Shown one piece after another: positions 15,472-37,320 of a stretch of 64,000 bases of DNA (positions are counted from its first letter, which is position 1; every line of letters begins with the position of its first letter). The stretch is from an uncultured Alphaproteobacteria bacterium. Lineage in GTDB: Bacteria; Pseudomonadota; Alphaproteobacteria; RF32; CAG-239. Location: contig CALXPU010000007.1 of NCBI GenBank assembly GCA_944390455.1, positions 356 through 64,355 of the forward strand. The letters run 5' to 3'. The notes under the pieces were generated by a model. It did not search any database. It was not told where the DNA came from and was given only the letters and a program-made list of their open reading frames with translations. The position numbers were made by a program, and so were the translations under genes.

Positions 15472-15653
15472 AAATATCTATCAGCAATAAAAAAGGGGGC
15501 GAAGTATCGCACCCTTGCTTTATGCTTTTATTATAAAGAGGTAATTCTTTTTTGTCAAGTTCTTTATTTGCAGTTTTGCTGAAATAAGTTATTGATTTTA
15601 CTGTTTATTTTTATGTATTTTCAAGTTCTCATCAAATTTTGGAGGACTTTTTT

Positions 15654-17603
15654 ATGCAAGAACAGAGAGTTTTTCTTGAAAAGTATAATTTTGTAAAATT
15701 TGAATTAGAAAGAATTAAGTCTTTATGGGGATTGAAAAAGGAGCATGCAGAGCAGAAAAGTAGTTATGATATTTCAATTGGGGAAATTATTAAGGAGATT
15801 TTTTCAGAACTTAAATTGTATGCGTTTAAGCCTTGTAAAAAATTGTTATTAGCAATGGCTATATGTGGGGTGTTGAGTGGGATAACCCCTTATTTAAGAA
15901 TGCTTTATATGGGGGAACTTCCCGAACTTTTAAACGGAACAACCAAGGCTATTATTATTTTTTCTTGCTTTATGGCAATGAGTGAACTTAATGGTTATTT
16001 ATTATCAATTTTTTCTACGCGTTCCAGATTTATTCAAGATGAAATGATGGATTTATATGATAATTCTGTGCGGGCGAAAAATTATGTTGAAATTTTGCAT
16101 AAACCCAGAGCCTTATTTAATGTTAACGGTGTGGGGGGATTGCTTGCTATGGCTGAATCTATATTTAGGTATAAACGCTTTATTTTGGATAGATTGTTCA
16201 TTTCTTATAAAGAGTTTATTTCTTTAGTTGTTTGTACGGCTAGTTTGTTTGCTATTGTTCCGCAGTTGGCGTTGTTTATTTTGTTGTTGCAATTTATTTC
16301 AATGGAGTTTGCTCTTTATAATAATAAGTTTTTTAGAAGAGTTGATGAGCGGTTTCGTTTGTTTTCGGCGAAAGTTTATCGCGAAAACGGACAAATCAGC
16401 AGTCTTGCTTCATTGGTGCAAAGTGCTAATAAGGTGGAAAAAGAAAGTAAACGTGTTTATGCCAGGCTTATGCGTAGTTCCGCTAAATTGCGGTTAAAAA
16501 TCTTTAACCGTTTAATGGGGGAAGAAAGTATTCGCCTAATTTTGGATGCGCTTTTAGCTATTGCGGTTTGCTATGTGGCTATTCGGGATATTATTCAAAC
16601 CGGTGATATCGGACGATTGGCTTTAATTTCCGGTGCGGCGATGCAGATGCAAGGACGTTGGCAGAGTGTATTTCGTTTTTATTTTAATGTGGACGAGTAT
16701 AAAAATTTGGTTGCGGATACCAGAAAACGTATGCAACTTCCTAAAGTTTTAGAAAGAGTTACCGGTAATCATCATTTAAGTGTGGCGGATAATTTTATTC
16801 GCTTGGAAAATGTTAGTTTTGCGTATCCGGCTCTTAAACGTATGGAAGAAATAGGCTATCTAACGGAGATTAAATACGGTGCTACGGTTTTAGAGAATGT
16901 ATCGCTTGATATTCGTGCGGGAGGCGTTACTGTTGTGGCCGGAACTTCAGGGCAGGGTAAATCGACATTAATGAGGCTTATTCGACATGATTATGATGTG
17001 CAACAAGGTAAAGTCTTTATCGGAAGTCAGAATGTTTGTGATTTGCCAGATGAGGAAATTAACAAGCATATTGCTTTTATTGGGCAGAGTGTGCAGTTTT
17101 TTGATGCGTCTATTCGTCGTAATCTTACTTATTTGAGTGATGTAACGGATGAAAAACGTTTGCATGAGGTTTTGGATGCAGTTGGATTAACCGAAGATAT
17201 TGCTAAGTTTGAAGAGGGGCTTGACTATAAAATCGGAATTAATGGGAATAAACTTTCCGGTGGTCAACGACAGAGATTGGCTTTGGCGCGAACTTTATTA
17301 ACCAATCGTCCGATTGTGATTATGGATGAGCCAACAACCGGATTGGATCAGGTTTTGAGCTTTCAGGTGATGAAATCTCTTAAAGAATTGGCAAAGCACA
17401 AAACGGTATTGCTGGTTACACATAATCCAACTGAAATTGCTTTGGCGGATAGGGTGCTGATTATCAAAGATAAACATGTTGTTGCGGATGGGGAACCGTT
17501 GCACCTGGTGACACATTCGGAATTTTTGAAATCGGCAATGACAAAGCAAGATGTGTTGAGTAAACGAGAATTATTTATTGCGCATTGTTTGAAGGTTGCG
17601 TAA
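15654..17603 (+). CDS. ABC exporter, fused permease/ATPase, atypical (paralog of 20689..22956)
   Basis: C-terminal NBD with Walker A GTSGQGKST, signature LSGGQRQRLALAR, Walker B IVIMDEPTTGLD and H-loop VTHNP. N-terminal about 5-6 TM helices plus 70-aa soluble leader. GGAGG SD 8 nt before ATG 15654, whereas the track ORF starts at TTG 15639. Confidence 0.8.
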   Translation: MQEQRVFLEKYNFVKFELERIKSLWGLKKEHAEQKSSYDISIGEIIKEIFSELKLYAFKPCKKLLLAMAICGVLSGITPYLRMLYMGELPELLNGTTKAIIIFSCFMAMSELNGYLLSIFSTRSRFIQDEMMDLYDNSVRAKNYVEILHKPRALFNVNGVGGLLAMAESIFRYKRFILDRLFISYKEFISLVVCTASLFAIVPQLALFILLLQFISMEFALYNNKFFRRVDERFRLFSAKVYRENGQISSLASLVQSANKVEKESKRVYARLMRSSAKLRLKIFNRLMGEESIRLILDALLAIAVCYVAIRDIIQTGDIGRLALISGAAMQMQGRWQSVFRFYFNVDEYKNLVADTRKRMQLPKVLERVTGNHHLSVADNFIRLENVSFAYPALKRMEEIGYLTEIKYGATVLENVSLDIRAGGVTVVAGTSGQGKSTLMRLIRHDYDVQQGKVFIGSQNVCDLPDEEINKHIAFIGQSVQFFDASIRRNLTYLSDVTDEKRLHEVLDAVGLTEDIAKFEEGLDYKIGINGNKLSGGQRQRLALARTLLTNRPIVIMDEPTTGLDQVLSFQVMKSLKELAKHKTVLLVTHNPTEIALADRVLIIKDKHVVADGEPLHLVTHSEFLKSAMTKQDVLSKRELFIAHCLKVA

Positions 17604-18533: not shown

Positions 18534-20144
18534 ATGAGACAAAATGTTTTTGTGCGGATTTTTGCCGCAATCATGAGAGTGTGTTTTCCGCTTATGGCGG
18601 TTAAGTACTTCACCAAGAAAACCAACAAACACGCTGAGTTGTTTTTGCCGAGCGAGGCAAAACAGCTTAAAGCAATTGAAAAGCTGGATTTAGACACCGA
18701 CCAGATACGAGCGCGTGTATGGTCTCTTCAGGTCAAAGTTGCGCGATTGCAACAGAGACACAATGACCTGATTCAGGAGATAAAGACTGAACAGGAGTTT
18801 TCCGCTCTTGTAGAGCGTGCTCATGTAGATATTGTTGCGCAAGCAATGAAGTTCTACACCCCGACACAAGAAATGGCTCTGCGTCTTCTGTCTCAATTCG
18901 GTCTGGATGCGGTTGAGCTGATTAATAAAGCTCCGGCGGCGTTTGATGGGCTTAAGGCCAGCGACATCTTGAGTGTTAAGCCAAATGAGGTTTGCGCCCC
19001 TGATAGTCCTCGTTGGGCTTTTGCAGAGGCTCTGGTCTCTAAGCGTTCGTCTTGGGCGCTTAAGTTTTTGGATGAACTTCGCAAGATGCCTCCGCAAAGA
19101 CTTGGCGAGCTGGGGAAAGCTAAATTTAACTTCTTTTTCAAATTCGCGTATGAGGCGAAGGAGAACGTGGCATTTTTGATGCCATATATGGCGGTTTTCT
19201 TCCCCGAGCTTTATGCTCAGGTGAGAGCGAATTTTTTCTTATATAAGGAATTCGCGCCATATATCACAAAAATGTTGCCTGCGAAGTTGAGATACTTGGA
19301 TAAAGGGAGATATAGTTTTCTCTCCAAGGGGTTTTCTCAGATTTCGGTGGAAGGGCAGCTTGATGAAGTCGGAGATGCCTATGCTTGGCTTAGTATTGCC
19401 TATTATAGGATGAATGAGCCGGCGGTTTATGAGCTTATCATTTCCAAGATGAGCGATATTAAGCCGATGGTGTCTGAGTCAATTTACAGTCAGCTTCTTG
19501 ATAGACTGATTGCATTGGCGAATTGTCCGGCGGATGTTTCTCGTCTGCTAAGTCTGGCTGATGACAAACGGAAGCAGGTTCTCTACCATAAAATGGTGGA
19601 GAAAAAATATGCAGTACTTTTGGCTGCTCAATATCCGTTCTCTTCATGGGAGGATAAAGAGCTAATCAAAAGTGCTTTACGTATTGTCATTACCGACAAT
19701 CATTTTCCTTTGGCAAAAATGCACGAACTTCCTGAGGATTTGCAGGAATTTGCAACTTACCAAATGGAAGTATCTGCTCAGATTGCTGCTTTAAAAAGTG
19801 ATATCTTCAAAAATGTAGGGTATCATTTGCTTCCTGAGGTAGAAATCTATCTGGTGCTGATGGATCCGCGGTACTCCTTGAAGTATCAGAAACTCTATGT
19901 TGATGAATTTAAATTGTCTGAAAAGGCATTTAATGCTTTGATACATAGAGAAACTGTTAAACTTCAAGATCAGGTGGTTTTTCCTGATGTTTTGGTTGGC
20001 AAATATGCAGCCAAATGGGGACTGACGGATGAGCAGTATCAAGCATTACTGCAGACACCGATGAAGAAATATACCCTTCAGTGGAAGGAGTATATTAAGA
20101 AACCGGAAGTTTCACATGTTTATCATAACGAAACAGAAGGGTAA
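18534..20144 (+). CDS. hypothetical alpha-helical protein (536 aa), compositionally foreign
   Basis: Long ORF with markedly higher GC and GCG/CTG-rich codon usage than neighbours. No recognisable motifs. Followed by a strong terminator. Confidence 0.55.
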   Translation: MRQNVFVRIFAAIMRVCFPLMAVKYFTKKTNKHAELFLPSEAKQLKAIEKLDLDTDQIRARVWSLQVKVARLQQRHNDLIQEIKTEQEFSALVERAHVDIVAQAMKFYTPTQEMALRLLSQFGLDAVELINKAPAAFDGLKASDILSVKPNEVCAPDSPRWAFAEALVSKRSSWALKFLDELRKMPPQRLGELGKAKFNFFFKFAYEAKENVAFLMPYMAVFFPELYAQVRANFFLYKEFAPYITKMLPAKLRYLDKGRYSFLSKGFSQISVEGQLDEVGDAYAWLSIAYYRMNEPAVYELIISKMSDIKPMVSESIYSQLLDRLIALANCPADVSRLLSLADDKRKQVLYHKMVEKKYAVLLAAQYPFSSWEDKELIKSALRIVITDNHFPLAKMHELPEDLQEFATYQMEVSAQIAALKSDIFKNVGYHLLPEVEIYLVLMDPRYSLKYQKLYVDEFKLSEKAFNALIHRETVKLQDQVVFPDVLVGKYAAKWGLTDEQYQALLQTPMKKYTLQWKEYIKKPEVSHVYHNETEG

Positions 20145-20516: not shown

Positions 20517-20688
20517 GGTGTTTGTTGTTGCCTTTTGATGGATGAGTATAGCTTTTTGTGACTTGCGTATTGTTGCTTTGAAATTTTTGTTTTATTGACC
20601 TTTTGAGGTCTTTTTTTGTGCTTGTTTTATGTGGTTTTTTGTGGTAAAATCTCTCTAATAGATGCCTAAATGTTAGGGAGATTTGAAA

Positions 20689-22956
20689 ATGGCTCAAGAG
20701 AAAACGAAAGAAAAAAAATCAAATAAAATTCCTAATTTTGCGGAATATGAACGTGAGCGCCTTAAAAATTTGGCAAGTGAAGCGAGGAAAGCTGCTCAAG
20801 AACTCAAATCTGCCGGACAGAAAATAGGAAAAGAAGTTTTGGATGCTCCGGAAAAAAAAGTTAAAGAGAAGGGAACACTTAAAACATCTTGGGAGGTTTT
20901 TAAGGAAGCCTGGGAAAAAACTGGTAAAGATTTTAGAAAATCAGTTGGCTATAAAATGGGAGAATCTGTTTTTCAGGGATTGTTACCATATTGTCAGAAT
21001 TTGTTATTTGGTTCACTTTCGGGGATTGTTGCCGGTACAAGCGGGGCAACAGCTAAATTCTTTGGAGCGGCAGCTCTTAATGTTGCACGACAAAGATTGG
21101 GGGATTTCTGCCGATTTAAATCTAAAATGGCAACGATTGTTTTAAATGATACGCATGCTAATGCCGCTTCTAGTTCTATCTATAAGGATATTCTTCATAA
21201 ACCGCGTCCGTATTTTAAAGATAATGCTCCAGCATCTTTGGGAGGTTTGACATCAGAGATTGTTTCGGCTAAAAATACTTTGCTAAATAAATCAGTAGAA
21301 TGTATGTCTAAAGTGATTGTATTTGGTATTAGTTCTGCTAGTTTAGTGGCTGTTGATCCGATGCTTGCTGCAGGGGTTTTGGGCGTGACTGTGGTTACGG
21401 CAGAATTTGGCGGATATATGAATAAAGTTTATCGTAAACTCAATAGTAAAATGCGTTCTTTTTCTCATAAAATCTCTAAAGAAAATAGTGATTCAATTAA
21501 AAATACACCACTTGTCCAAGATACTAATCGGGTTGAAGTGGAAACAAAGCAAATGGAAAATCGCTTAAATAAAGCTTCTAAAGTTACACAGAAGATTACA
21601 TATGCTAAGAGTAAAGCTTATCTGAAAATGAGTATGGCTATTAATATCGGTATGGAAGGATTAATTATGGCGGCAGCTTTTGCTGATGTGGTTAAAACCG
21701 GAGATATCGGCCGGTTTGCTCTGATTAGCACGGCTTCGTGGCAGATGATGAGCTCTGGGAATATGCTTTCGGAATTTTGGAATGAAATGCAGGCGGGAAC
21801 GCATAGACTTATTGATGCTTCTAAAAAATTGATTACACCAAAAGAACTTGAACGTGTTACAGGTAAAGAAAAATTAACCGAAAGGGATACTAAAATTAGT
21901 GTGCGAAAAGTTAATTTTGCATATCCGCAAATTAAAGATGTTACCGATATGAGCTTGGTTGAGGCCATGGATCGAGAAGGCGAGATTAAAAGAGGCGAAA
22001 ATGTGCTTAAAGATTTAAGTGTTGAGTTTGATAAAGGTTGTTTAACGGCTGTAGTTGGTACTTCAGGTAATGGCAAATCCACGTTGATGAGCCTTATTCG
22101 TCATGATTATGATGCTCAGTCGGGGCAAATATTTATCGGAAATAAGGAAATTCGTGAATTATCTGATGATGAACTTAATGCGCATATTGCGTTTGTGGAT
22201 CAAAATGTACACTTTTTTGATGAAAGCGTGGGGTATAATCTTAAATATTTTAAGCCTGAAGCTACAGATGAAGAACTTATGCAGGCATGCGAAAAAGCAG
22301 GATTTAATCGTGATATTCAGAAGTTTAATGATGGTCTTTCTCATAAAATCGGGCAAGATGGAGCTAAACTTTCTGGTGGACAAAGACAACGTTTGGCGCT
22401 GGCTCGTGTCTTTTTAACCGATAAACCGATAGTGATCATGGATGAACCGACAACAGGTCTTGATCCAAATCTTAGTCTTAAAATTATGAAGTCTCTTAAA
22501 GATATGGCTCAAGATAAAACGGTGATTATGGTGACACATAATCCAACTGAAGTTGCGCTTTCTGATAGAGTGGTTGTGATTGAAAAAGGTGAAATTGCTG
22601 CGGACGGAAAGCCGATGGATTTGATTAAAACCAGTGAGTTTTTGCGTAATGTCTTAACTAAAGATGATATTAAAAACAAAAATAAGCTTTATCAAACCAG
22701 TATTAATGGGGTTAATCCGATGCAGGAGGCTGCAACTGTGCTTAATGAAGAAGCTAACGGTAAAGTTTTGAGCGATATTGAAAGGGCGGAGAAAAGAAAA
22801 CTTTTGGAAGCGCATAAGAGAGCTTATGTTGGGGTTCGCAAGAAAACGCTTGAAAATCAACGTCGCAAGGAAGGCAAACCTTTACCAGAAAAGAAACAGA
22901 GACAACCTCTTAATCCGCCATCAGCTGTATTAAATCGTGGTGGGGCGGAGATTTAA
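20689..22956 (+). CDS. ABC exporter, fused permease/ATPase with long K/E-rich N- and C-terminal tails (paralog of 15654..17603)
   Basis: NBD GTSGNGKST…LSGGQRQRLALARV…IVIMDEPTTGLD…VTHNP. SD agggag 8 nt before ATG 20689. Extended -10 TGgTAAAAT at about 20643-20651. Confidence 0.8.
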   Translation: MAQEKTKEKKSNKIPNFAEYERERLKNLASEARKAAQELKSAGQKIGKEVLDAPEKKVKEKGTLKTSWEVFKEAWEKTGKDFRKSVGYKMGESVFQGLLPYCQNLLFGSLSGIVAGTSGATAKFFGAAALNVARQRLGDFCRFKSKMATIVLNDTHANAASSSIYKDILHKPRPYFKDNAPASLGGLTSEIVSAKNTLLNKSVECMSKVIVFGISSASLVAVDPMLAAGVLGVTVVTAEFGGYMNKVYRKLNSKMRSFSHKISKENSDSIKNTPLVQDTNRVEVETKQMENRLNKASKVTQKITYAKSKAYLKMSMAINIGMEGLIMAAAFADVVKTGDIGRFALISTASWQMMSSGNMLSEFWNEMQAGTHRLIDASKKLITPKELERVTGKEKLTERDTKISVRKVNFAYPQIKDVTDMSLVEAMDREGEIKRGENVLKDLSVEFDKGCLTAVVGTSGNGKSTLMSLIRHDYDAQSGQIFIGNKEIRELSDDELNAHIAFVDQNVHFFDESVGYNLKYFKPEATDEELMQACEKAGFNRDIQKFNDGLSHKIGQDGAKLSGGQRQRLALARVFLTDKPIVIMDEPTTGLDPNLSLKIMKSLKDMAQDKTVIMVTHNPTEVALSDRVVVIEKGEIAADGKPMDLIKTSEFLRNVLTKDDIKNKNKLYQTSINGVNPMQEAATVLNEEANGKVLSDIERAEKRKLLEAHKRAYVGVRKKTLENQRRKEGKPLPEKKQRQPLNPPSAVLNRGGAEI

Positions 22957-22988
22957 TAATAGCTTATACTTTAAGGTTAGGGGCTTGG

Positions 22989-24734
22989 TTATGATTGGAT
23001 AAAGCCGTCTGACTGCAAATTGAATAAATGGTAAAATTTACCGGATTTGTTTTTGAGCAATTCTTGTGGTGCTCCACTTTCTACGATTTTGCCGTGTTCC
23101 AGCACTACTATTCTATCCATGTTTCTTAAAGTTGATAAGCGGTGGGCAATCGCTATAACGGTTTTGTTTTTCATGATGTTTTGTAGAGCCTTTTGGATGG
23201 CTGTTTCTGATTCGCTATCTAAAGCGGAAGTAGCTTCATCTAAAATTAAAATCGGAGTGTCTTTTAGGATAGCTGAGGCTATGGCTATTCTTTGTCTTTC
23301 GCCGCCGGATACCTTAACTCCTCTTTCTCCGACTACGCTTTGATACCCTTTAGGCATTTTTAAGATTGTGTCGTGAATTTGAGCTAGTTTGGCTGCTTTG
23401 TAAACATCTTCATCGGAGGCTTTAGGGTTTGAAAAGCGGATGTTATTTATTATAGAACGATTGAATAAGGTCGGCTCTTGCGGGATAAGGGCTATATGAC
23501 GGTGTAGCGAACTTTGTGTTATCTTGGCAATGTTTTGCTCAGAAATCTGAATTTCTCCTCCTTTTATGTCATAGGCGCGGAGGATTAAATTGATTAGAGT
23601 TGATTTGCCTGAGCCAGATAAACCAACGATACCGACTTTTTCGTTTGCTTTTATTTCTAGATTGAAATCTTCAAATAATGGGGCTTTGTTTTCATAGGCA
23701 AAGCTCATATTTTTTATGGAAATATTGGGCTTGCTTATTTTTAGTTGCTTGGCGTTGGGGGCGTCATTGACTTCTATCGGTTTATAAATGATATTTATAG
23801 CATCTTCTAAACCGCCTAGGTTTTGTTGATAGCGTATGATAAAATCTCCTATTCTATCTATCGGAGATAAAAGTAAATGAATGTATGTCAAGGCAATCAG
23901 AACTTGGCTGATATTGAGATTTTTTGCATGCCAGAAATAAACTAAAATCAATAGAGATATGACGCGTAAGACCATCAGCGATAAGATATTAAAGCTGTTG
24001 GATATGCCTGTTTCTTGTCCTTTTTTGAGGTAACTTCGGACGACTTTTTTCAGTGTTTTGCCTAAGTAAGCCTTTTCATGCAATACAGCGCCGCAGTTTT
24101 TTACTAGGCGGGCATTGGCGATACTGTCTACGATAATTCCGGCAGCTTCCGACTCTAATTGAGCGTTTTCTCTGGAGATTGGTTTTAGGTTTTTGCAGTG
24201 GTAGTAGTTAAAGAAACTTGTTATTACGCAAAAAAAGGTAATGGATGTGGCTAAGCCTTTGTCAACGCTGAATAATATCGGTAAGGCAACTGCATAGGGG
24301 ATAATGACTGCTTCCAATACGCCTTTAAAACTCCAGCAGAGATTTATGGTTTGAAGGACAAGTTGAATAACTTTATTAGATATTTTTCCGGACATTTCTT
24401 CGGTAAAATATGAAGTGGAGTGTTTATGTGTGTACTTGAATGCGTCTTTGTAAATATTGCGTTTTAGAAAAATATCCATGCGAAATTCAAAAATGGTGCG
24501 TAGGCCGTCGCAAATATTTGAGCCAAAATGTAGGGCAGCGTATATGGCAACATAGGTTATAGAAGTGCTGGTTATAATTTGCGTTGGATTTTCAACAATG
24601 TAACCGAACAACGATGCAATGTAGTAATTGTCTAGGTAAATAAATACACGACTGAGCCCAAATAAACCAAAGGTGGCGATGGTGTACAATTTAATTCGTC
24701 TTAAGTATTTGAAAATAAATTTTATTGCGGTCAT
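22989..24734 (-). CDS. ABC transporter ATP-binding/permease protein, MsbA-like exporter (tandem paralog 1 of 3)
   Basis: 6-TM TMD plus NBD (GLSGSGKST, VSGGERQRIAIA, ILILDEATSALD, IAHRL). Confidence 0.9.
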   Translation of the reverse strand: MTAIKFIFKYLRRIKLYTIATFGLFGLSRVFIYLDNYYIASLFGYIVENPTQIITSTSITYVAIYAALHFGSNICDGLRTIFEFRMDIFLKRNIYKDAFKYTHKHSTSYFTEEMSGKISNKVIQLVLQTINLCWSFKGVLEAVIIPYAVALPILFSVDKGLATSITFFCVITSFFNYYHCKNLKPISRENAQLESEAAGIIVDSIANARLVKNCGAVLHEKAYLGKTLKKVVRSYLKKGQETGISNSFNILSLMVLRVISLLILVYFWHAKNLNISQVLIALTYIHLLLSPIDRIGDFIIRYQQNLGGLEDAINIIYKPIEVNDAPNAKQLKISKPNISIKNMSFAYENKAPLFEDFNLEIKANEKVGIVGLSGSGKSTLINLILRAYDIKGGEIQISEQNIAKITQSSLHRHIALIPQEPTLFNRSIINNIRFSNPKASDEDVYKAAKLAQIHDTILKMPKGYQSVVGERGVKVSGGERQRIAIASAILKDTPILILDEATSALDSESETAIQKALQNIMKNKTVIAIAHRLSTLRNMDRIVVLEHGKIVESGAPQELLKNKSGKFYHLFNLQSDGFIQS

Positions 24735-26488
24735 GCTTCTTCTCCATAAGAAAGATAGCCATTGTTTTGGAGCTGATAAAGTTTGTAGAATGTGCCGGAT
24801 TTGTTTTTGAGTAGTTCATCTATGGAACCTTCTTCAATTATCTTGCCATTTTCTAAGACGATTATTCTATCCATGCTTCTTAAGGTTGATAAACGGTGAG
24901 CAATGGCGATAACGGTTTTATCTTTGATGATATTTTGTAATGCCTTTTCTATCATTATTTCCGCTTCACTGTCTAAGGCCGATGTTGCTTCATCCAAAAT
25001 TAAAATCGGAGCATCTTTTAGGATAGCAGAGGCTATGGCTATTCTTTGTCTTTCGCCGCCGGATACCTTAACGCCTCTTTCTCCGACTACGCTTTGATAC
25101 CCTTTAGGCATTTTTAAAATCGTGTCGTGAATTTGAGCTAGTTTGGCTGCTTTGTAAACATCTTCATCAGATGCTTTGGGGTTTGAAAAGCGGATGTTAT
25201 TCATTATGGAGCGGTTAAATAAACTGGGTTCTTGTGGAATTAAGGCTATGTGATGGCGCAACGAACTTTGTGTCACTTCTGTAATATTTTGCTCGGAAAT
25301 CTTAATTTCTCCCCCTTTTATATCATAGGCGCGAAGAATTAAATTGATTAGAGTGGATTTGCCGGAGCCTGATAAACCAACGATACCGACTTTCTCGTTT
25401 GCTTTTATTTCTAGATTGAAATCTTCAAACAATGGGGCTTTGTTTTCATAAGCAAAGCTCATATTTTTGATAGAGATATTGGGGGTGTTTATTTTTAATT
25501 GTTTAGCGTTGGGAGCATCATTTATTTCTATCGGTTTATAGATGACATTTATAGCATCCTCCAAAGAGCCTGTGTCTTGTAAATAGCGAAGAAATGCAGC
25601 TCCTATTTGATTTATGGGGGATAATGCTAACTGAATGTAAGTTAAGGCAATCAGAACTTGGCTGATGTTGAGATTTTTTGTATGCCAGAAGTAAACTAAA
25701 ATCAGTAAAGATATGACACGCAAGACCATTAGGGATGTAGTATTGAAACTGATTGATATTCCTCTTTCGTGTCCTTGTTTTAAATGGCTTTTGATGACTT
25801 TTTTAAGAGCTTTACCTAAGTAAGCCTTTTCATGCAATATGGCACCGCAATTTTTAACTAGGCGAGCATTGGCAATGCTATCCACGATAATTCCGGTGGC
25901 TTCTGACTCTAATTTTGCATTTTCTTTGGATATCGGTTTTAGAATCTTGCTGTGCCAACAGTTGAGGAGACTTGTTATTATGCAAAAAAAGATGATGGAT
26001 GTAGCTAAACCTTTGTCAATACTAAACAATATCGGTAGGGCGACAGCATAAGGAATAATGACGATTTCAAGTATTATTTTAAAACACCCACAAAAATATA
26101 TTGAACTATCTACAAGTTGAATAATTTTATCAGATACTTTTCCGGACATTTCTTCCGTAAAATAAGAAGAGGAGTGTTTATGCGTATGTTTGAATGCATC
26201 TTTATAAATATTGCGTTTTAAGAAAATATCCATGCGAAGTTCTGTAAAGGCACGAATACTATCGATTACGTTTGAACTAAAGTGCAAGAGAGTATATATG
26301 ATAATATAGGTTAAAGAAGTGTTGGTTATTATTTGTGTCGGATTTTCGGCTATATAACCGAATAATGAGGCTATATAATAATTGTCCAGATAAATGAGAG
26401 TGCGTTCAAGGCTATATAAACCAAGTGTTGCGATGGTGTAGAGCTTGATTTGCTTAAAATATTTGAAAATAAATTTTATTGCAGTCAT
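24731..26488 (-). CDS. ABC transporter ATP-binding/permease protein, MsbA-like exporter (tandem paralog 2; mosaic)
   Basis: Same architecture. ATGA overlap with paralog 1. Middle section near-identical to paralog 1, last about 85 codons identical to paralog 3. Confidence 0.9.
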   Translation of the reverse strand: MTAIKFIFKYFKQIKLYTIATLGLYSLERTLIYLDNYYIASLFGYIAENPTQIITNTSLTYIIIYTLLHFSSNVIDSIRAFTELRMDIFLKRNIYKDAFKHTHKHSSSYFTEEMSGKVSDKIIQLVDSSIYFCGCFKIILEIVIIPYAVALPILFSIDKGLATSIIFFCIITSLLNCWHSKILKPISKENAKLESEATGIIVDSIANARLVKNCGAILHEKAYLGKALKKVIKSHLKQGHERGISISFNTTSLMVLRVISLLILVYFWHTKNLNISQVLIALTYIQLALSPINQIGAAFLRYLQDTGSLEDAINVIYKPIEINDAPNAKQLKINTPNISIKNMSFAYENKAPLFEDFNLEIKANEKVGIVGLSGSGKSTLINLILRAYDIKGGEIKISEQNITEVTQSSLRHHIALIPQEPSLFNRSIMNNIRFSNPKASDEDVYKAAKLAQIHDTILKMPKGYQSVVGERGVKVSGGERQRIAIASAILKDAPILILDEATSALDSEAEIMIEKALQNIIKDKTVIAIAHRLSTLRSMDRIIVLENGKIIEEGSIDELLKNKSGTFYKLYQLQNNGYLSYGEEA

Positions 26489-28245
26489 GCTTCTTCTCCA
26501 TAAGAAAGATAGCCATTATTTTGGAGCTGATAAAGTTTATAGAATGTACCGGATTTGTTTTTGAGTAGTTCATCAATGGGACCTTCTTCAATTATCTTGC
26601 CATTTTCTAAGACAATTATTCTATCCATGCTTCTTAATGTAGAAAGTCTATGAGCGATGGCAATCACGGTTTTATCTTTGATGATATTTTGTAATGCCTT
26701 TTCTATCATTATTTCCGCTTCACTGTCTAAGGCCGATGTTGCTTCATCCAAAATTAAAATCGGAGCATTTTGTAAAATAGCGCGGGCAATAGCAATGCGT
26801 TGTCTTTCTCCACCGGAAAGCATTGTCCCTCTTTCACCGACGACGCTATTGTATCCGTGTGGTAAATTCATAATGGTTTTATCAATTTGTGCTAATTGAG
26901 CGGCTTGGCGGATTTGCTCTTCGCTCGCTTGTGAGTTGGTTATACGCAAATTTTCCAAGATACTACGATTAAATAAGGCGGTATCTTGTGAGATAACGGC
27001 AATGTTTTTGTGGTGGGAGCGGAAAGTTAAGTCTTTGATATTTGTTTTGTTTAGCAATATTTCTCCGCTGTCTACATCATAAGCGCGAAGTAATAAGTTA
27101 ATCAAGGTGGATTTTCCTGAGCCGGAATGTCCGACTACTCCAATCTTTTCTCCGGCTTTGATATGTAGATTTAGGTTTTCAAATATCGGTTTGCCTTTGA
27201 TGTATGCAAAGTTTACGTTTTTGAATATTATTTCAGCTTTTGTTGGGCGTATGTTGATGGCGTTTTCTTTTTCTTTGATGTCAATGGGTTGGTTTAGGGT
27301 TGAGAAATTAGCACGAATTCCTCCCAGCTGATCAGATATAAATTGGCAGTAGTTGTTTATGCCCATGGTGGCTAAAACTAAGTTGACCAAGGTGGTGTAA
27401 ACGTAAAACAGATTATCCAGAGCGATATTGTCTTTTTGTGCAAAATATAAGATTAAAAAGATTCCGGAGGTTAAGAATACGGTATCTATTGCATGAAAGG
27501 TAAAACGCGAAACAATTTGATAACGTCCTTGTTCGGCTATGCGTAAAAGGGCTTGTTTTAAGCTTTTGTAAAAATAAAGTTGTTCGCTGAAAAATGATCC
27601 GCTGTATTTGACTAAATTGGCATTGGCAATGCTGTCTACTAAAATGCCTTTGGCTATGTTTTCATAATTTACACGATTTCGGCCTAAATCAAAAAAGTGA
27701 CGATTTACTTTATATACGGCGAAAAAATATGGAATGTTTATTGCAAATAATAGGGCGCTTAGTGATGGACTGAATGTTGCTATAATGGAATAAGATACGA
27801 TTAAAATTCCCATTGGACGGATGAGTAAAAAACAGGTATCCGAGAATAATTGTGTTAAACTCTGGCATAATCCTGTTAGTGCCGATGATATACGACCACT
27901 CATTTCATCATCAAAGTAACGAACGGAATGAGCATGAATTTTGGTGAAAATGTCTGTTACTAAATGACTTAAAAATGTTTGGGAAAAGGCGTCTTTTATA
28001 TATGTGGCGTAGTAGCCGTTTACGAGGGCGCGGATAAGGTAATATCCGACTAATATCAATAAAATTGTGAAACATTGATTGAGCGCTTCGGTTGAGTTTT
28101 TTATTTCAAAGCAACCAACAAGGCGGCTGATAAGCCATGTTTCTAATGGTAAAATGATGCAGGTCAAAATGAATGTAATGCAAAAAAGAATAAACAGTTT
28201 TTTACATTTTTTAAGATTTTTTAATATAAGCGTTCTAATATCCAT
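26485..28245 (-). CDS. ABC transporter ATP-binding/permease protein, MsbA-like exporter (tandem paralog 3)
   Basis: TMD plus NBD (GHSGSGKST, LSGGERQRIAIARA, ILILDEATSALD). ATGA overlap with paralog 2. Confidence 0.9.
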   Translation of the reverse strand: MDIRTLILKNLKKCKKLFILFCITFILTCIILPLETWLISRLVGCFEIKNSTEALNQCFTILLILVGYYLIRALVNGYYATYIKDAFSQTFLSHLVTDIFTKIHAHSVRYFDDEMSGRISSALTGLCQSLTQLFSDTCFLLIRPMGILIVSYSIIATFSPSLSALLFAINIPYFFAVYKVNRHFFDLGRNRVNYENIAKGILVDSIANANLVKYSGSFFSEQLYFYKSLKQALLRIAEQGRYQIVSRFTFHAIDTVFLTSGIFLILYFAQKDNIALDNLFYVYTTLVNLVLATMGINNYCQFISDQLGGIRANFSTLNQPIDIKEKENAINIRPTKAEIIFKNVNFAYIKGKPIFENLNLHIKAGEKIGVVGHSGSGKSTLINLLLRAYDVDSGEILLNKTNIKDLTFRSHHKNIAVISQDTALFNRSILENLRITNSQASEEQIRQAAQLAQIDKTIMNLPHGYNSVVGERGTMLSGGERQRIAIARAILQNAPILILDEATSALDSEAEIMIEKALQNIIKDKTVIAIAHRLSTLRSMDRIIVLENGKIIEEGPIDELLKNKSGTFYKLYQLQNNGYLSYGEEA

Positions 28246-28327
28246 AATAAATAGCCTTAAAAATTTGCGATGTGTGTATAATAGTCAAAAAAATATTTTT
28301 GTCAAGTAAAAAATTAAAAGGAGCTGT

Positions 28328-29344
28328 TTGATGAAGAAAATTGCCATTTTGGTTGTTTTAGTTTTAACGCTCGTGGGAGCTTTTTGGTTTTTAAATCGCT
28401 TGGATTATTCTAAAGTTGCGATTGTTTTACCTTCTTCCGAACGCGCCTCATCTCCTTATTACTATCAAAAAGATGGGGATTTTTTCTTGGCGGATGATTT
28501 AAAACAGGGGTTGCAGAAATTAGGGTACAAAGTTGAGTATAGGTTTCGCGAAAATTATGATGATTTAAATTTGAGTGATATCGGCAATGTGATTTATTTT
28601 AAGGGATATTATAATTTTGAGCATTTGCCGGATGCCGAAAATAAAGACGACGGGCGTAAACGTGTTCTCTATCTCTATTATGTGGAAGGTTTGCATCCTG
28701 AAATATTAAACGAAGTTGATGTGGTGGCTTGTGCTTCGCAAAAGTTTATTAAAGATATGGTTGCTCCATTAGGGGTGGCTACTGCATATATTCCGCAATT
28801 TACTAATCCGGATAGATTTAAGCCGACAGCTAAAGAAATGGATAAGGCTTATACGGTGTTGTTTGTCGGTTCTGACCATTCGGGATTTGGACGCAAAAGT
28901 GTTGATTATGCCGTTTTGGCAGATGCTAACTTGAGTGTTTTTGGCAAGTTTTGGGAAAAAAGTTTGCAACCGGATGTATTAAAAGGGAACTTTATTGAGA
29001 ATAATGACTTGTATCGTTATTATGCAAGTGCGGATATTGTTCTTAATGATCATCGGGAAGATATGAGCTATTATGGATTTATTTCTAACCGAATTTTTGA
29101 TGTGACAGCGTCTGGCGGTTTTGTGCTTACGGATTATTTACCTGAAATTGAGGCAGTTTATGGCGATAGTGTCGCAACTTATAAAGACTATTATGAATTT
29201 AAAGAAAAGTTAGAGTATTATTTGGCTCATCCAGAAGAACGCGCAGTGATGGCTCAGAAAGCTCGTGAGATTACTTTGAAGAACTTTTCTAATGTTAAAA
29301 TTGCGGAAATGTTTGACGCTCTCTTTAAAAATATAAAAAAATGA
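28328..29344 (+). CDS. glycosyltransferase, CgeB-like (DUF3880 / Glyco_trans_1_2-type) with N-terminal membrane anchor
   Basis: N-terminal TM. C-terminal …NRIFDVTASGGFVLTDY… is typical of CgeB-family GT1-like domains. Confidence 0.5.
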   Translation: MMKKIAILVVLVLTLVGAFWFLNRLDYSKVAIVLPSSERASSPYYYQKDGDFFLADDLKQGLQKLGYKVEYRFRENYDDLNLSDIGNVIYFKGYYNFEHLPDAENKDDGRKRVLYLYYVEGLHPEILNEVDVVACASQKFIKDMVAPLGVATAYIPQFTNPDRFKPTAKEMDKAYTVLFVGSDHSGFGRKSVDYAVLADANLSVFGKFWEKSLQPDVLKGNFIENNDLYRYYASADIVLNDHREDMSYYGFISNRIFDVTASGGFVLTDYLPEIEAVYGDSVATYKDYYEFKEKLEYYLAHPEERAVMAQKAREITLKNFSNVKIAEMFDALFKNIKK

Positions 29345-29730: not shown

Positions 29731-31392
<1,662 letters not shown>

Positions 31393-31510
31393 TCTTTTTG
31401 TTGCTTATTTGACAGCCGGATTTTTTCCGGCTGTTTTTGTTTGTATAAACTTAATTTTAATTATTGTCTGTTATCCTAGAACACAACAGGTGTTTTTTAG
31501 GATATTTGAA

Positions 31511-34500
31511 ATGGGACTACTTAAACGTATTTTTGGCGTTAATATTTTATTTTTGTTTCTTTTTTGTGCCGTTAATGAGGCTAAAGCATTGTCTTTTGCT
31601 GGTTTTGCATATCAAAATGCAAGGCAGGCAAATATTATTGCGATAAAAAATTATCTTAAAAAAGGATATAAAATAGATTCCATTTCTCCGAATGGATATA
31701 CAGCTTTGTGCTATGCTGCTGCATATAATGATTATCCGGCATATAGTCGTTTACGTAATTTAGGGGCTGATGAAAATCATGAGTGTATGCAAAAGGTTAA
31801 TCCGGCTTATGTGCAAGATTTGGCGCAAAGATATGACGCAGTGGCTTCTCATCCTAACTATGCTTCTAATTTAGCGGATTCAGATACAACTAAAAAATAT
31901 TTAATTGCAGGAACTGCTTTGGCCGGAACAGCTGCCGCGGTTGCTTTGTTGGCAGATAGTGGTAGTGGTGGTTCTTCCGGAAATACAAATCGTTGTCCTA
32001 TCGGTCAAGAATGGGATGGCGAACAATGTATTCCGATTATTTGTCCGGACGGAACTCATTTAGAGGGAAATAATTGTGTTTCATGTCCTACCGGTCAGAA
32101 ATGGGATGGTTCTAAATGTATTCCGATTATTTGTCCTGATAATACGCATTTGGTTGGGAATGATTGTGTTGCCGACGATATTAATATTGATAACGATAAT
32201 GATAAGGACGTGTATGGAATTTATTCGGAAGAAGAAGATGTATATAATTTACGTTCAGATTCTGAATATCCTGATAAAGAGGCGAATATTAATATAGATA
32301 ATAAGGGTAATGGTAACGTTTATGGTATTTATGGCTTTGGTAATATTAAGAATTCCGGTGTTACAGATGCTGAGGCTGATGGAGAAGCTAATGTTGGTGT
32401 AGGAAATATTACTATTAATAATCAAGGTACTGGTAATGTTTTTGGAATTTACTCTCATGTTGAAGATATTTCTATTTTGAAAGAAGCATATATTGCCATG
32501 GCAACAAAAGGTGGTACAGCGTATGGCAACTTGGAGATAAATAATCAAGGCGGAGGGACCGCAACCGGTGTTTATGGCGATGTGCGCGCTTATAATGCCA
32601 GAGGTAATTTTGGTGGAAAAGCATACGGAAATATTACTATTCGCAATGACGGTGATATTTATGGTTTGAGCGGATATACTAATGCGACTAATGTAATTAC
32701 ATTTAATGGTGGTGGTGAAGCTAAAGGTGTCATTAATTTATATAGCAAAGGTGATGGAGACATTTATGGAATGGCCGTTAGTCCTGATGGAATTCCAGGA
32801 GTAGGGCAGCCTGAAGGTGGAGAGGGGCAGTTAGCAAATTGGTTTGCATATAACTCAGTGGTTTACAGTGATAATAGCTATGATTGGACGGGAAAGACAT
32901 CTACATCTGCTGAGATTAATATTCATAATATAGGTGATGGTAATGTGTATGGAATGTATGGAGGACAAACTCTTCAAAATGCTATTTACCAAGGAGTTGT
33001 GGATGGAGAAGGAAATGTTCAAGGTCTTGCAGATGGCTTGATTAGCATTGTTAATCATGGGAATGGTGATGTTTATGGTATGTATACGCTTGGTGGAAAA
33101 GATGGTACTCCGTCCAATATAGGTAATGTTACTAATGATGGCGCTCATTCGGTTATTAATATTGTTAATAGCGGAGATGGGGTTTCAACAGGTTTGCGTG
33201 GTGGCCAAGGTGGTTATATTGAAAATTCAGGTGAAATTAATATTAATAATTTAGGAAACGGTACTGCTGTTGGTATTTATGGTGGGGCAAATTCAAATAT
33301 TGTTAATAGCGGAACTATTAATATTTATCGTAAAGCCTATGTAGATGATGAAATGAAGCAAACTTATACACCTGAAAGTGCAACAGGCGGTACGGCTTAT
33401 GGTATTTATGCGGAAACAGGTTCTCATGTTATTAATGCTGGAACTATTACTGTTACGGGAGCGGATAAAGGAGCCGGTATTTATTTAGAAGCAGGGGCAA
33501 CATTTGAAAATTCCGGAGATGTTAAGTTTAATGGTTCTTCAGATTCCGCTATTCAAGAAGATGGAGAAGCTATTGATATTTATGGGGATGGGACAGATAG
33601 AGCTTCTGTTGACTTGAATGATATTGGTGGAGAAATTATTTTAGGACAAGGCGGACGCTTTTTTGCGGATAGCCTAAAAGGCGATATGAGTGTTTCCGAA
33701 AAAAATGTATTAGGTGGTTTTGATAATCAATATGTCTTGACGGGAGCTTTGCAAGCGGATGATGTTGATGAGTTGAATTTAAATTCTAAATCGGCAATGT
33801 TTGAAGCTACTTCTCAGAAAAATGAAAATGGTGGATATGATGTCGTTATGACGCGTCAGAACTTTAAAGATATTATTGATGATGATAATATTTCTGGTTA
33901 TCTTGAAAATAATTATGTTGGTGAAAACGGAAGTAAGATTTTTGATAGTTTGAAAACCGCAGGCGATAAAGGTACTCTTAATCAGAAAGCGGCAAATCTT
34001 TTAGGAACGGATATGTTACCAAATTTCCGTCGTGAAGATGCTTTGCTTTATCGTAATTTGAGCCGACAATTTAATGATAATTTATTTAATCAGCCTAATC
34101 AGAATTATATTGGCGGATATAAATATGTTGATATTTCAACAGATGCTGATGGTACACTTATGGGAACCGATGGTCAGGCTCATGTTGCTTATGGCATGAT
34201 GAAAAATAAAGGCGATAACGGAGTTACCTATGGTTTAGGGGCTAGTATTGCTAAGCTTAACAGCGATTATGACAATGGTTCTAAACGTGATGCCAATATT
34301 TTTGGGGTATGGGCTCCTGTTGGATATGATTTTAAAAATGGTGCACAATGGTATTCTAAATTGTATCTAGGTTATGTTGATGGCTCTTATGATCGTATAA
34401 CAGATTTACAGAAATATTCTGCAGATATGAATGAATATCAATATGGATTGAGTAATGAAGTTCGCTATGATTTGAGTTTAGGTGGTGGTTTTACATTTAG

Positions 34501-34906
34501 TCCATTAGCTGAATTAAATTTGTTTGGCGTTTATAGCGATGGTTATGATGAGGGGAATGATGAAGGAGCAATTCATACTGATAGCCAAAATGATTTATCT
34601 TTAGAAGGTGGACTTGGCGCTTATTTGGCTAAAAAGGTTGATTTTTCTGATGATAGTCATTTGACGGTTCAAATTGGTGGTGTTTATTATGTAGAATTTC
34701 TTGATCCGGATGATGGTTTTGATGCTTCTGTATCCGCTCTTGATGGCAAATATAAATTATCACACAAGTCAGATGATGGACGTGCTGTTTTATCTGCTCG
34801 CGTAAATTATAACTATAAAGATATTACAATTTATGGAAATATTGAAAAAGAAACATCAAATGATAAAAGTTTACTTATTGATGCTGGGGTGCAATATAAA
34901 TTTTAA
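31511..34906 (+). CDS. autotransporter (type Va) adhesin-like protein with N-terminal signal peptide, ankyrin-like segment, Cys-rich tandem modules and Gly-rich beta-helix repeats
   Basis: Signal peptide MGLLKRIFGVNILFLFLFCAVNEAKA. NGYTALCYAAAYNDYPAYSRLRNLGADEN matches the ANK consensus. 2x 29-aa CP.GQ.WDG..CIPIICPD.THL.GN.CV repeats. More than 10 I.I.N.G.G.VYG(I/M)YG repeats. C-terminal beta-barrel ending ...GVQYKF (aromatic terminus). The track ORF start 31337 overlaps groEL and is an over-extension. Confidence 0.7.
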   Translation: MGLLKRIFGVNILFLFLFCAVNEAKALSFAGFAYQNARQANIIAIKNYLKKGYKIDSISPNGYTALCYAAAYNDYPAYSRLRNLGADENHECMQKVNPAYVQDLAQRYDAVASHPNYASNLADSDTTKKYLIAGTALAGTAAAVALLADSGSGGSSGNTNRCPIGQEWDGEQCIPIICPDGTHLEGNNCVSCPTGQKWDGSKCIPIICPDNTHLVGNDCVADDINIDNDNDKDVYGIYSEEEDVYNLRSDSEYPDKEANINIDNKGNGNVYGIYGFGNIKNSGVTDAEADGEANVGVGNITINNQGTGNVFGIYSHVEDISILKEAYIAMATKGGTAYGNLEINNQGGGTATGVYGDVRAYNARGNFGGKAYGNITIRNDGDIYGLSGYTNATNVITFNGGGEAKGVINLYSKGDGDIYGMAVSPDGIPGVGQPEGGEGQLANWFAYNSVVYSDNSYDWTGKTSTSAEINIHNIGDGNVYGMYGGQTLQNAIYQGVVDGEGNVQGLADGLISIVNHGNGDVYGMYTLGGKDGTPSNIGNVTNDGAHSVINIVNSGDGVSTGLRGGQGGYIENSGEININNLGNGTAVGIYGGANSNIVNSGTINIYRKAYVDDEMKQTYTPESATGGTAYGIYAETGSHVINAGTITVTGADKGAGIYLEAGATFENSGDVKFNGSSDSAIQEDGEAIDIYGDGTDRASVDLNDIGGEIILGQGGRFFADSLKGDMSVSEKNVLGGFDNQYVLTGALQADDVDELNLNSKSAMFEATSQKNENGGYDVVMTRQNFKDIIDDDNISGYLENNYVGENGSKIFDSLKTAGDKGTLNQKAANLLGTDMLPNFRREDALLYRNLSRQFNDNLFNQPNQNYIGGYKYVDISTDADGTLMGTDGQAHVAYGMMKNKGDNGVTYGLGASIAKLNSDYDNGSKRDANIFGVWAPVGYDFKNGAQWYSKLYLGYVDGSYDRITDLQKYSADMNEYQYGLSNEVRYDLSLGGGFTFSPLAELNLFGVYSDGYDEGNDEGAIHTDSQNDLSLEGGLGAYLAKKVDFSDDSHLTVQIGGVYYVEFLDPDDGFDASVSALDGKYKLSHKSDDGRAVLSARVNYNYKDITIYGNIEKETSNDKSLLIDAGVQYKF

Positions 34907-35654: not shown

Positions 35655-35802
35655 ATTACGGATGTTATCAAAAAATCCCCTTGTTAGGGGATTTTTTGTT
35701 TGTGTGCATATGATGTGGTAAAACTATCTTTTTACTTGATTATATAGTCAGATGTAGTTTACTTTTATATCATGTTAATTGATATATAAGTTAGGAGCTC
35801 TT

Positions 35803-37320
35803 ATGTCTTTTCGTTTTTGTTGTTTGGTTTTAGGGTGTATGGTTTTAAATTTCCATGCGGCTTGGGCTACGTATACTTATAAAGAAGATGATACTCGTAT
35901 GGTTAATGGCATATTGTATGACATTAACGGTGATCCGGTGACAGGTAATTATGAGCTCTTTTATGAAAATAATATCAGAAAAAGTTTGATGCCGTATGTT
36001 GACGGAATGTTAAACGGTGTGGGCTCTGTTTATAATGAACAAGGAATAAAAGAAGCAGATATGCCGTTCATTAATGGAAAGTTAGAAGGTGTGGCACTGG
36101 TTTATTATGAAGACGGAAGCCTTAAGGAGAAAATCCCTTATAGAGGTGGTAAGATTAATGGTGTTATGAGAGCTTTCTACAAAAATGGTCAGGTTAAGGA
36201 TAGAATATCTTATGATGCAGATATTAAAAACGGAACGGCGAAATCATATTATGAAGATGGAAAATTAAAGGAACTCTATAATTATACCGATGGGCAGAAA
36301 GAAGGGGAAGCTACGGTTTATTTTTACGATGGGAGTATTGCTGAAAAACTTAACTATAGTGGAGATGCTATTGTCGGAGAGCGGACAATCTATTATAAAA
36401 GCGGACGCGTTAAATCTCGTATGAGTTATGAGTTTGGTAAAAAGAATGGCAATATGCAGAACTATTATGAAAGCGGTGGTTTAGCAGCGATTGTTCCTTA
36501 TAAGGATGATATTATTGATGGAGAAGGATCTTTTTATACTGAAGATGGTGTACTGAATTTAACGGTTAATTATAAAAATAATGTTCGCGATGGGGTGGCT
36601 CGTGCTTATTTCCCAAATGGTTCGGTTAAACTTGCAGTAGAATATCAAAATGATGTCAAAAATGGAGTTGAAACTGAATATTTTGAAGATGGTAAAGTAA
36701 AAATGGAAATGCCTTATGTTAATGGGGTTGTTAATGGTATTGGGCGTGAGTATTATGAAACTTCCGGTTTGAAAATGGAAATGACGTATGTTGATGCTGT
36801 GGCAAATGGCGTGGCAAAGTTTTATGATGAAAAAGGAAAGTTGTCTGTAGAGGCTTATTATAAAGATGGTAAGAAAGATGGTCTTCAGAAGAATTTTGAT
36901 GAAGATGGTAAGCTTGTTTCTGAAAGTAATTTTGTTAAAGATGTTTTGAATGGCGAATATAAAGAATTTTATGATTCAGGTAAGGTTAAGTCTACAGCTA
37001 ATTATACAGATGGAGTGTTGGAAGGTTTGACACTTGTTTATGATGAGGATGGAAATTTATCTTATGAAATTCCTTATGTTAAAAACAGAAAAGAAGGAAA
37101 AGTAAAACGTTATTATCCGACCGGAGAGCTTATGGGCGAAGTTTCTTATGAAAAAGGTAAGAAACATGGTATGTTGGATGCGTATAATCAAGATGGAACT
37201 TTAATGGCTAAGGTCTTGTTTAATAAAGATGAGGCTATTAAGGGGTATAGTCTTAATCATGGTAAAGATCCTGTGTTGATGTCTGAAGAAGAACTCAAAC
37301 TGATTAACGACGCGTATTAG
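35803..37320 (+). CDS. secreted MORN-variant repeat protein (YwqK-family repeats)
   Basis: Signal peptide MSFRFCCLVLGCMVLNFHAAWA, then about 17 tandem YwqK/MORN2-type repeats (…NG…YYE(D/N)GKLK…Y…GKK(N/D)G…). AGGAG SD 5 nt before ATG 35803. The track ORF starts at TTG 35779. Confidence 0.65.
   Translation: MSFRFCCLVLGCMVLNFHAAWATYTYKEDDTRMVNGILYDINGDPVTGNYELFYENNIRKSLMPYVDGMLNGVGSVYNEQGIKEADMPFINGKLEGVALVYYEDGSLKEKIPYRGGKINGVMRAFYKNGQVKDRISYDADIKNGTAKSYYEDGKLKELYNYTDGQKEGEATVYFYDGSIAEKLNYSGDAIVGERTIYYKSGRVKSRMSYEFGKKNGNMQNYYESGGLAAIVPYKDDIIDGEGSFYTEDGVLNLTVNYKNNVRDGVARAYFPNGSVKLAVEYQNDVKNGVETEYFEDGKVKMEMPYVNGVVNGIGREYYETSGLKMEMTYVDAVANGVAKFYDEKGKLSVEAYYKDGKKDGLQKNFDEDGKLVSESNFVKDVLNGEYKEFYDSGKVKSTANYTDGVLEGLTLVYDEDGNLSYEIPYVKNRKEGKVKRYYPTGELMGEVSYEKGKKHGMLDAYNQDGTLMAKVLFNKDEAIKGYSLNHGKDPVLMSEEELKLINDAY

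Follow-up and report, generated by a model that had tools for sequence, protein, structure and literature searches.

The 64,000-nucleotide (nt) stretch analysed here, which we call the window, comes from contig CALXPU010000007.1 of an uncultured, low-GC alphaproteobacterium and carries a tandem array of three genes for half-transporters of the ATP-binding cassette (ABC) type. We refer to these genes as A, M and B, and our central finding is that the middle gene M is a chimera of its two neighbours. Comparison with related loci points to a history that, taken as a whole, we consider quite probable: a two-gene operon A-B would have become A-M-B through an unequal crossover, and the array would then have undergone partial gene conversion with the cassettes that code for the transmembrane domains (TMDs) being kept distinct. 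An earlier note on this DNA had described three co-directional genes with ATGA overlaps, and minus-strand open reading frames (ORFs) do occupy exactly the positions it proposed. In order of transcription, the genes and their putative signals are:

26485..28245, minus strand: gene A (paralog 3 of the earlier note), an ABCB-type half-transporter of 586 amino acids (aa) with a TMD and a nucleotide-binding domain (NBD), transcribed first
24731..26488, minus strand: gene M (paralog 2), the chimera in the middle, 585 aa, with a TMD of the type we call alpha
22989..24734, minus strand: gene B (paralog 1), last in the putative operon; its 581 aa combine a beta-type TMD with a B-type tail of its own
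24731..24749, with a second copy at 26485-26503, minus strand: duplicated junction motif TATGGAGAAGAAGCATGAC, a Shine-Dalgarno-like GGAG and then the overlapping ATGA
28278..28305, minus strand: best sigma-70-like promoter match (TTGACA-16-TATTAT, 11/12, a consensus match only), in the 82-nt gap upstream of A

Neighbouring genes (A/M and M/B) share a 4-nt ATGA stop/start overlap each, and the copies stand in a constant 1754-nt register; self-alignment returns a direct repeat of 2079 bp, 82.6% identical at an offset of 1755, that spans both gene junctions. No terminator-like site was found between A, M and B on the coding strand. Given the one promoter-like site, the lack of such a terminator and the same GGAG...ATGA motif at both junctions, the three genes would be expected to form a single operon read as one transcript. 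A terminator-like stem-loop does occur antisense to the genes, on the plus strand and at the same spot in B (23681-23706) and M (25435-25460), where it probably reflects nothing more than the conservation of the repeat.

From nt 1 to 1474, M is B-like, with an alpha TMD and a B-type NBD core, and from nt 1476 to the stop codon at nt 1758 it is A-like. The breakpoint falls at window positions 25013/25015, in codon 492 (between LKD and APILILDE), at the Walker B motif. Of 724 informative sites, those to the left of nt 1475 divide into 78 at which M sides with A and 568 at which it sides with B, and those to the right into 69 and 9; a maximum chi-squared of 251 results, a value as high being found in 0/2000 permutations, and a Sawyer-type run test on the M/A block likewise gave 0/2000. 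The block itself (24731-25014 vs 26485-26768) is 94.4% identical (268/284) and includes a perfect run of 103 nt (24912-25014). Outside it, M and A are 44% identical without gaps, and the whole gene pair is 56% identical in a codon alignment. Their proportion of synonymous differences is 0.77-0.78, and thus saturated, over codons 1-490, and their synonymous divergence (dS) is only 0.26 over codons 491-585. Because synonymous divergence is saturated upstream of the breakpoint and low downstream of it, the block reflects recombination rather than protein constraint. The tract extends past the end of the gene and contains one divergent patch:

24706..25014, minus strand: acceptor copy of the A-to-M tract, spanning the 3'-terminal 284 nt of M, the junction and ~25 nt at the start of B; 292/309 positions identical to 26460-26768
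26460..26768, minus strand: donor-type copy of the tract, spanning the 3' end of A, then the junction and ~25 nt at the start of M
24884..24911, minus strand: divergent patch of 28 nt within the tract, with 10/28 mismatches between M and the resident A (64% identity)

Judged by mismatch counts, the donor of the M tail in the window is A. Over nt 1476-1577, M matches the resident A throughout (0/102 mismatches), compared with 23-27 mismatching sites for other M genes and 23 for B, and in the same stretch A orthologues show a median of 11/102 differences. The whole tail differs from the resident A at 16 positions and from the M genes of other genomes at 51-63, which places it nearer to its resident paralogue than to its orthologues elsewhere. 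As alpha and beta TMDs have diverged to a dS of ~1.0 and yet the 102 sites hold no mismatch, the A-to-M tract must be much younger than the duplication. A B-derived micro-tract was considered for the 28-nt patch and rejected: the patch matches the A alleles of four related loci (L005, L008, L009 and L046) exactly and, on that comparison, is allelic variation of A and not B sequence.

These results uphold the claim of a chimeric paralog 2 with a sharp breakpoint and dispose of uniform divergence as an alternative, given the permutation support and the drop in dS. The ~280-bp block shared by paralogs 2 and 3 is likewise real and runs ~25 nt beyond the junction, to 24706. Only the position of the breakpoint has to be revised: ...SALDSE/AEIMIE, where the earlier note had drawn it, is the first visible run of amino-acid differences, and the true nucleotide switch lies 13 codons upstream.

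For the second block of that note, more than 90% identity between paralogs 1 and 2, the outcome was mixed. The relevant segments are:

23265..23714, minus strand: NBD-core block of B; its identity to M 25019-25468 is 90.2%, with two sub-blocks (95.7% and 94.0%) separated by 139 nt at 80%
25529..26488, minus strand: TMD-coding cassette of M (alpha); the beta cassette of B at 23775-24734 shares 77.5% identity with it

The core thus exceeds 90%, but the coordinates first proposed were 6 nt out of register, and the block as a whole is 88.0% identical in the +1754 register. Its dS is 0.56, compared with 1.01 in the TMD, and in orthologues the NBD is not lower in dS than the TMD. Since the run test was not significant (P=0.066), conversion between M and B was dropped as a claim for the window. 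The figure of about 80% with clustered substitutions for the two TMDs was close to the mark, their 77.5% identity being distributed in clusters. The longest exact runs shared by the genes are 103 nt for M/A, 44-47 nt for M/B and 16-19 nt for A/B, which would make the present array more prone to recombination than its ancestor.

To place the array in context, we scanned one genome per species, which yielded seven related Alphaproteobacteria metagenome-assembled genomes (MAGs), and added further loci from metagenome contigs. The resulting panel holds two- and three-gene arrays from at least 15 related loci, with differing breakpoints:

Three genes (A-M-B): window, L005, L006, L007, L008
Two genes (A-B): L009, L010, L011, L045 (its A truncated at the contig end), L046/L047
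Two genes, more distant lineages: L049, L050, L051/L052, with B 51-58% identical at the amino-acid level

All loci share the order groEL, groES, a glycosyltransferase-like gene and the array, and a convergent ABC gene of 746-756 aa follows the array in all but L049. Two- and three-gene arrays therefore occupy the same locus in identical synteny, and the number of junctions matches the number of genes: three-gene loci all have two copies of the junction motif, 1754 nt apart, and complete two-gene loci all have a single copy (a scan of Joint Genome Institute (JGI) metagenome contigs for the motif gave 0 matches). Because the distant lineages L049-L052 all have two genes in the same synteny, the two-gene A-B operon is best taken as the ancestral state; the pair, with an overlap of 1-4 nt, is kept in the outgroups L049-L052 and in the two-gene ingroup loci. 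Every middle gene of the three-gene loci combines a B-type 5' part with an A-type 3' end. A single unequal crossover between A and B fits this pattern, since its expected product, A - (B 5'::A 3') - B with a duplicated junction, is what is found.

The point at which M switches from B-like to A-like differs among the genomes, each switch being supported by 0/2000 permutations:

Window: nt 1474/1476
L006: nt 1599/1606
L007: nt 1675/1684
L005: nt 1675/1692
L008: nt 1680/1697

In L005 (8001-11500), M and B are moreover perfectly identical for 536 nt (gene nt 1009-1540), a tract missing from the window that, going by its identity, is a very recent conversion; other M=B tracts were found in L007 and L008. 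With five different breakpoints in five genomes and perfect conversion tracts of 103 to 536 nt, the suggestion that recombination is ongoing is well founded. The TMD cassettes fall into three types, which do not keep to one position in the array:

Alpha TMD type: M of the window, M of L005, M of L006, B of L045
Beta TMD type: most B genes, M of L007
Gamma TMD type, distinct mainly in nt 1-600: B of L007, M of L008, B of L048

The order of the array is accordingly A-beta-gamma in L007 and A-gamma-beta in L008. Over 591 nt (-29 to +561 from the ATG) the two share one and the same gamma cassette, at position 2 in one (L008:6247-8004) and at position 3 in the other (L007:9755-11500), and it is flanked by shared repeats in both; the flanks of these genomes are only ~91% identical, and the comparison suggests a recent exchange between lineages. 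L045 has an alpha cassette joined to a B-type tail in what is apparently a two-gene array, its contig beginning inside A, and the single B gene of L011 looks, from its sequence, like a fusion of M and B from an L007-type array. This L011 gene (L011:8001-9742) measures 1742 nt and not 1746, with a frame shift near codon 32, and is either a pseudogene or an assembly error. The A-type tail with its junction, upstream, and the NBD core, downstream, thus act like homology arms in the loss, duplication, movement and exchange of cassettes.

While the ends of the genes appear to have been homogenised, their membrane domains have diverged. Compared with its orthologues, M has a ratio of nonsynonymous to synonymous divergence (omega) of 0.08-0.16, and this purifying selection marks it as a working gene. 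Amino-acid divergence is concentrated in the TMD, as the earlier note had proposed. In a McDonald-Kreitman (MK)-type test of alpha against beta TMDs, the ratio of fixed nonsynonymous to synonymous differences was 51/15 and that of polymorphic ones 112/187 (p=4e-9), and with only closely related subsets the two ratios were 82/50 and 48/102 (p=5e-7). The NBD core shows no fixed differences, and the TMD and NBD have omega values of 0.14 and 0.06, respectively. The fixed amino-acid changes form six clusters, one per predicted transmembrane helix (codons 16-30, 66-82, 120-142, 174-192, 232-251 and 288-308), which in the structural model appear to lie near the boundary between inner leaflet and cytoplasm, in the cytoplasmic half of each helix.

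The comparison of dN/dS between paralogs that had been suggested as a check gave elevated pairwise omega in these clusters (0.20-0.37, versus 0.06-0.07 in the rest of the TMD), with values above 1 confined to one cluster in L005. Positive selection in the sense of omega >1 was rejected for the window, where pairwise omega stands at 0.14 for the TMD and reaches 0.2-0.4 in the clusters. The data support a phase of faster protein change in the membrane domains that gave way to constraint. Furthermore, the amino-acid identity of the TMD is 0.94-1.00 for A among 9 orthologues and 0.69-0.97 for the B/M genes, which suggests, at the level of sequence, that M and B have diverged in binding or pairing and that A has remained constant. 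The earlier idea of substrate-range diversification is consistent with the excess of TMD divergence, and its substrate part is something we only infer.

Taken together, these observations would be explained by the following sequence of events. The ancestor would have had a two-gene, translationally coupled A-B operon, probably encoding a heterodimeric exporter, a pairing that is itself deduced. At the stem of the species group, A and B would have undergone an unequal homologous crossover in their NBD-coding 3' parts, with A - M - B as the product and with M receiving its B-type 5' part, its A-type 3' end and a second GGAG...ATGA junction. Non-reciprocal tracts would subsequently have been copied between neighbours, from A to M at the 3' end and, in the NBD core, between B and M; M/B crossovers would have deleted or re-created a gene; and TMD cassettes would have been swapped between positions and lineages. 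The latest event in the window would have been the copying of A sequence into M from Walker B codon 492 downstream, including the 103-nt perfect stretch. The alpha, beta and gamma cassettes would have escaped homogenisation, their types being retained by selection. Gene conversion, which the earlier note had invoked for the origin of the chimera, thus has its place at the later stages; the first step is better described as an unequal crossover, a change in copy number that had been missed.

Four other explanations have to be set against this history. One is import, by which M or its tail would have entered from a related strain through homologous recombination across conserved flanks. The cassettes do lend themselves to such a reading, the alpha cassette of L045 and the gamma cassettes of L007 and L008 being 97-100% alike between genomes with flanks at 88-91%, and the tail of the window's M has fewer mismatches to the A of L005 (12) than to the resident A (16), owing to the 28-nt patch. 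However, the 103-nt run corresponds to the resident A allele, which is also present in L011 and differs by one mismatch in L007, and an import leaves the A-type end and duplicated junction of every middle gene unexplained. Although import and conversion in place are compatible and not mutually exclusive, we regard import as an unlikely substitute for the history proposed here.

A second explanation takes the junction at nt 1475 to be the original duplication crossover, the tails of the sister loci having been shortened by later conversion from B to M, with no recent conversion from A to M. The stretch around Walker B and the D-loop is where A and B are most alike (75-83%) and is a plausible site for a crossover, and in L005, L007 and L008 the tail has evidently been overwritten by B-to-M tracts. 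A tract as old as the duplication should, however, be at least as diverged as A orthologues are from each other, and the perfect match of M to the resident A over 102 sites is at odds with both their median of 11/102 and the alpha/beta dS of ~1.0; this makes the explanation improbable in our view.

A third dispenses with recombination altogether and ascribes the blocks to stronger purifying selection on the NBD after two ordinary whole-gene duplications. NBDs are indeed the most conserved part of ABC proteins, and for the M/B block, with its P value of 0.066, parts are 94-99% conserved across all B/M genes of the clade. On the other hand, nt 1475 is exactly where M-A synonymous divergence falls out of saturation, to 0.26, the A/B pair lacks such a block, orthologous NBDs have a dS that is not below that of the TMDs, and breakpoints vary by genome, up to the 536-nt perfect M=B tract of L005; we therefore consider this account very improbable. 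Finally, that M or its A-like tail arose from mis-joining or repeat expansion is scarcely credible, for although only short-read assemblies are at hand and a 103-nt perfect run is long enough to confuse a de Bruijn graph, the 5.5-kb array (22900-28400) is 100% identical in three independent metagenome assemblies (ERZ24773408, ERZ28614498 and ERZ24773413), the exact M protein is present on 11 contigs, M has a TMD sequence of its own that is just 77.5% identical to that of B, its tail differs from that of the resident A at 16 positions including the allelic patch, and an intact middle gene of the same architecture occurs in four other species-level MAGs.

Several points nonetheless weigh against the crossover-and-conversion history, or limit how firmly its parts can be held. 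All sequences come from short-read metagenome assemblies, and species relationships were taken from flanking DNA only and are blurred by recombination between lineages. Since the exact runs shared by A and B are now just 16-19 nt long, the founding crossover would have been rare and its original breakpoint is unrecoverable. Because flanks differ more between genomes than alpha and gamma cassettes do, a single gain followed by several losses is inseparable from horizontal spread of the three-gene state. The M/B block of the window fell short of significance as a conversion tract. As regards selection, the 'polymorphism' of the MK-type tests is variation between species, synonymous sites are partly saturated and recombination is present, and no codon window reached omega >1 except a single 21-codon cluster in L005. 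Lastly, none of the three proteins has a degenerate ATP site, all NBD motifs being canonical, so that no such site lends support to the heterodimer part.

All three proteins carry an N-terminal six-helix ABC_membrane domain (PF00664, 47-68 bits, cut-off 28) followed by a C-terminal ABC_tran NBD (PF00005, 106-122 bits, cut-off 25), as is characteristic of type IV half-transporters. Canonical motifs are present in each: Walker A (GxSGSGKST), Q-loop (PQE/SQD), signature ((V/L)SGGERQR), Walker B (ILILDEATSALD) and H-loop (AHRLST). The AlphaFold model of M has a mean pLDDT of 82.9 and shows a type IV exporter fold with six long helices (3-48, 56-102, 115-157, 159-208, 216-270 and 275-316). A Foldseek search with this model returned Atm1-type exporters, Sav1866, TM287/288, MsbA and ABCB6 (E ~1e-31 to 1e-28, TM-score 0.63-0.76), the first four being the closest at TM-scores of 0.70-0.75. 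Among solved half-transporters, the best match is MsbA for A and Sav1866 for both M and B.

The label 'MsbA-like', used in the earlier note, is apt at the level of the fold and fails at that of the equivalog. Although MsbA is the top NCBIfam match for A and within the top three for M and B, the proteins score 325.6, 305.7 and 327.8 bits with TIGR02203 (MsbA), against a cut-off of 602, and 261, 251 and 290 bits with NF008381 (MsbA), against a cut-off of 867. Assignments to the MsbA, glucan exporter, HepA and type I secretion families were all rejected, every score being far under the curated cut-offs, and no genes for lipopolysaccharide biosynthesis were found adjoining the array. Because no curated NCBIfam equivalog cut-off is reached by any of the three, A, M and B are, on these profile scores, generic ABCB-type half-transporters and not MsbA equivalogs. 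They resemble MsbA in domain order, length and fold, and differ in that the glucan exporter, HepA and other families score about equally; MsbA is, moreover, a single-gene homodimer, in contrast to the two- or three-gene operon considered here.

A closer comparison is offered by heterodimeric exporters encoded by adjacent half-transporter genes, of which LmrCD and BmrCD are examples; one degenerate ATP site is common, though not universal, in such heterodimers. Like TM287/288 and TmrAB, the array has adjacent, co-directional, overlapping genes for proteins with a six-helix TMD and an NBD (Foldseek TM-score 0.68-0.75), and its outgroups conserve an adjacent pair as a two-gene operon. It differs in having a third, chimeric gene and no degenerate site. 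From the conserved, translationally coupled pair and the constancy of A as against the variability of B and M, it would follow that A and B form a heterodimer for which M could serve as an alternative partner.

Unequal-crossover tandem duplication, partial gene conversion and ABCB-type half-transporters are all well known, and the array is not a new kind of system. The tufA/tufB pair is an example of gene conversion between bacterial paralogues, and a review by Santoyo & Romero (2005) reportedly covers gene conversion and concerted evolution in bacteria. As in the paralogues of a published survey (PMC6053082), the tracts of the array are non-reciprocal, occur in several lineages and are more alike within a genome than between orthologues; the difference is that here only the NBD end is homogenised and that, the repeat being a direct tandem, the same homology also shifts copy number. 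The text of that survey makes no mention of ABC transporters, our literature searches turned up no direct bacterial precedent in arrays of ABC half-transporters, and two ABC papers in which gene conversion comes up (PMC7674697, PMC2892482) make a case against it for the systems they describe.

The movement of domains (DOMO) in the specificity genes of Helicobacter pylori's Type I restriction-modification systems provides another parallel: in an arrangement x-(variable)-y-x-(variable)-y, recombination at repeats moves modules and changes their number from 2 to 1 or from 2 to 3 (PMC3077401). In the array, x would correspond to the A-type tail with its junction, y to the NBD core and the variable module to the TMD cassette, with the gamma cassette at position 2 in L008 and position 3 in L007 as the case in point. 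The modules here are, however, membrane domains of separate genes in an operon and not recognition domains within one polypeptide.

Some features of the surrounding DNA may be recorded. Two further ABC ATPase genes, at 15639-17603 and 20683-22956 (654 and 757 aa), have long N-terminal regions with weak or no ABC_membrane matches; together with the array they make five ABC-type genes within 13 kb, and the 757-aa gene is convergent to the array across a 32-nt gap. Two ORFs at 13410-14933 and 18534-20144 (507 and 536 aa) have no Pfam match, the second being kept in position in all related loci. On the other side of the array, an autotransporter ORF with a GTG start (31337-34906, 1189 aa) overlaps the end of groEL (29746-31392); its true start is probably further downstream, as gene calls on related contigs give 1131 or 1184 aa. 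Adjoining the autotransporter and a DUF1189 gene is a 513-aa protein made of MORN-repeat variants (35779-37320; PF07661, E=4e-64). The region 10001-12000 has a GC content of 0.296 and a negative GC skew over a minus-strand gene for a major facilitator superfamily transporter (10749-11951), and the skew is positive almost throughout the rest of the window, the minus-strand ABC array included. No transfer RNA genes and no Rfam families at the gathering threshold were found in the whole 64 kb (1-64000).

Overall, the array offers a compact natural example of how a new transporter gene can be born by one crossover and kept distinct, its ATPase end evolving in concert with those of its neighbours and the membrane domains diverging. 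The panel of related loci could be used to study the limits of conversion tracts, the way in which selection shields specificity regions from homogenisation, and the use of alternative partners by one ABC subunit. A bolder possibility, which we put forward tentatively and think rather less than likely, is modular diversification, in which a constant A would pair with interchangeable M and B subunits whose cassettes, bracketed by two homology arms, are duplicated, deleted, moved and exchanged between species. If this is true, the modular array would let a host-associated alphaproteobacterium retune its export under selection and would be an exporter counterpart of the domain movement seen in restriction specificity.

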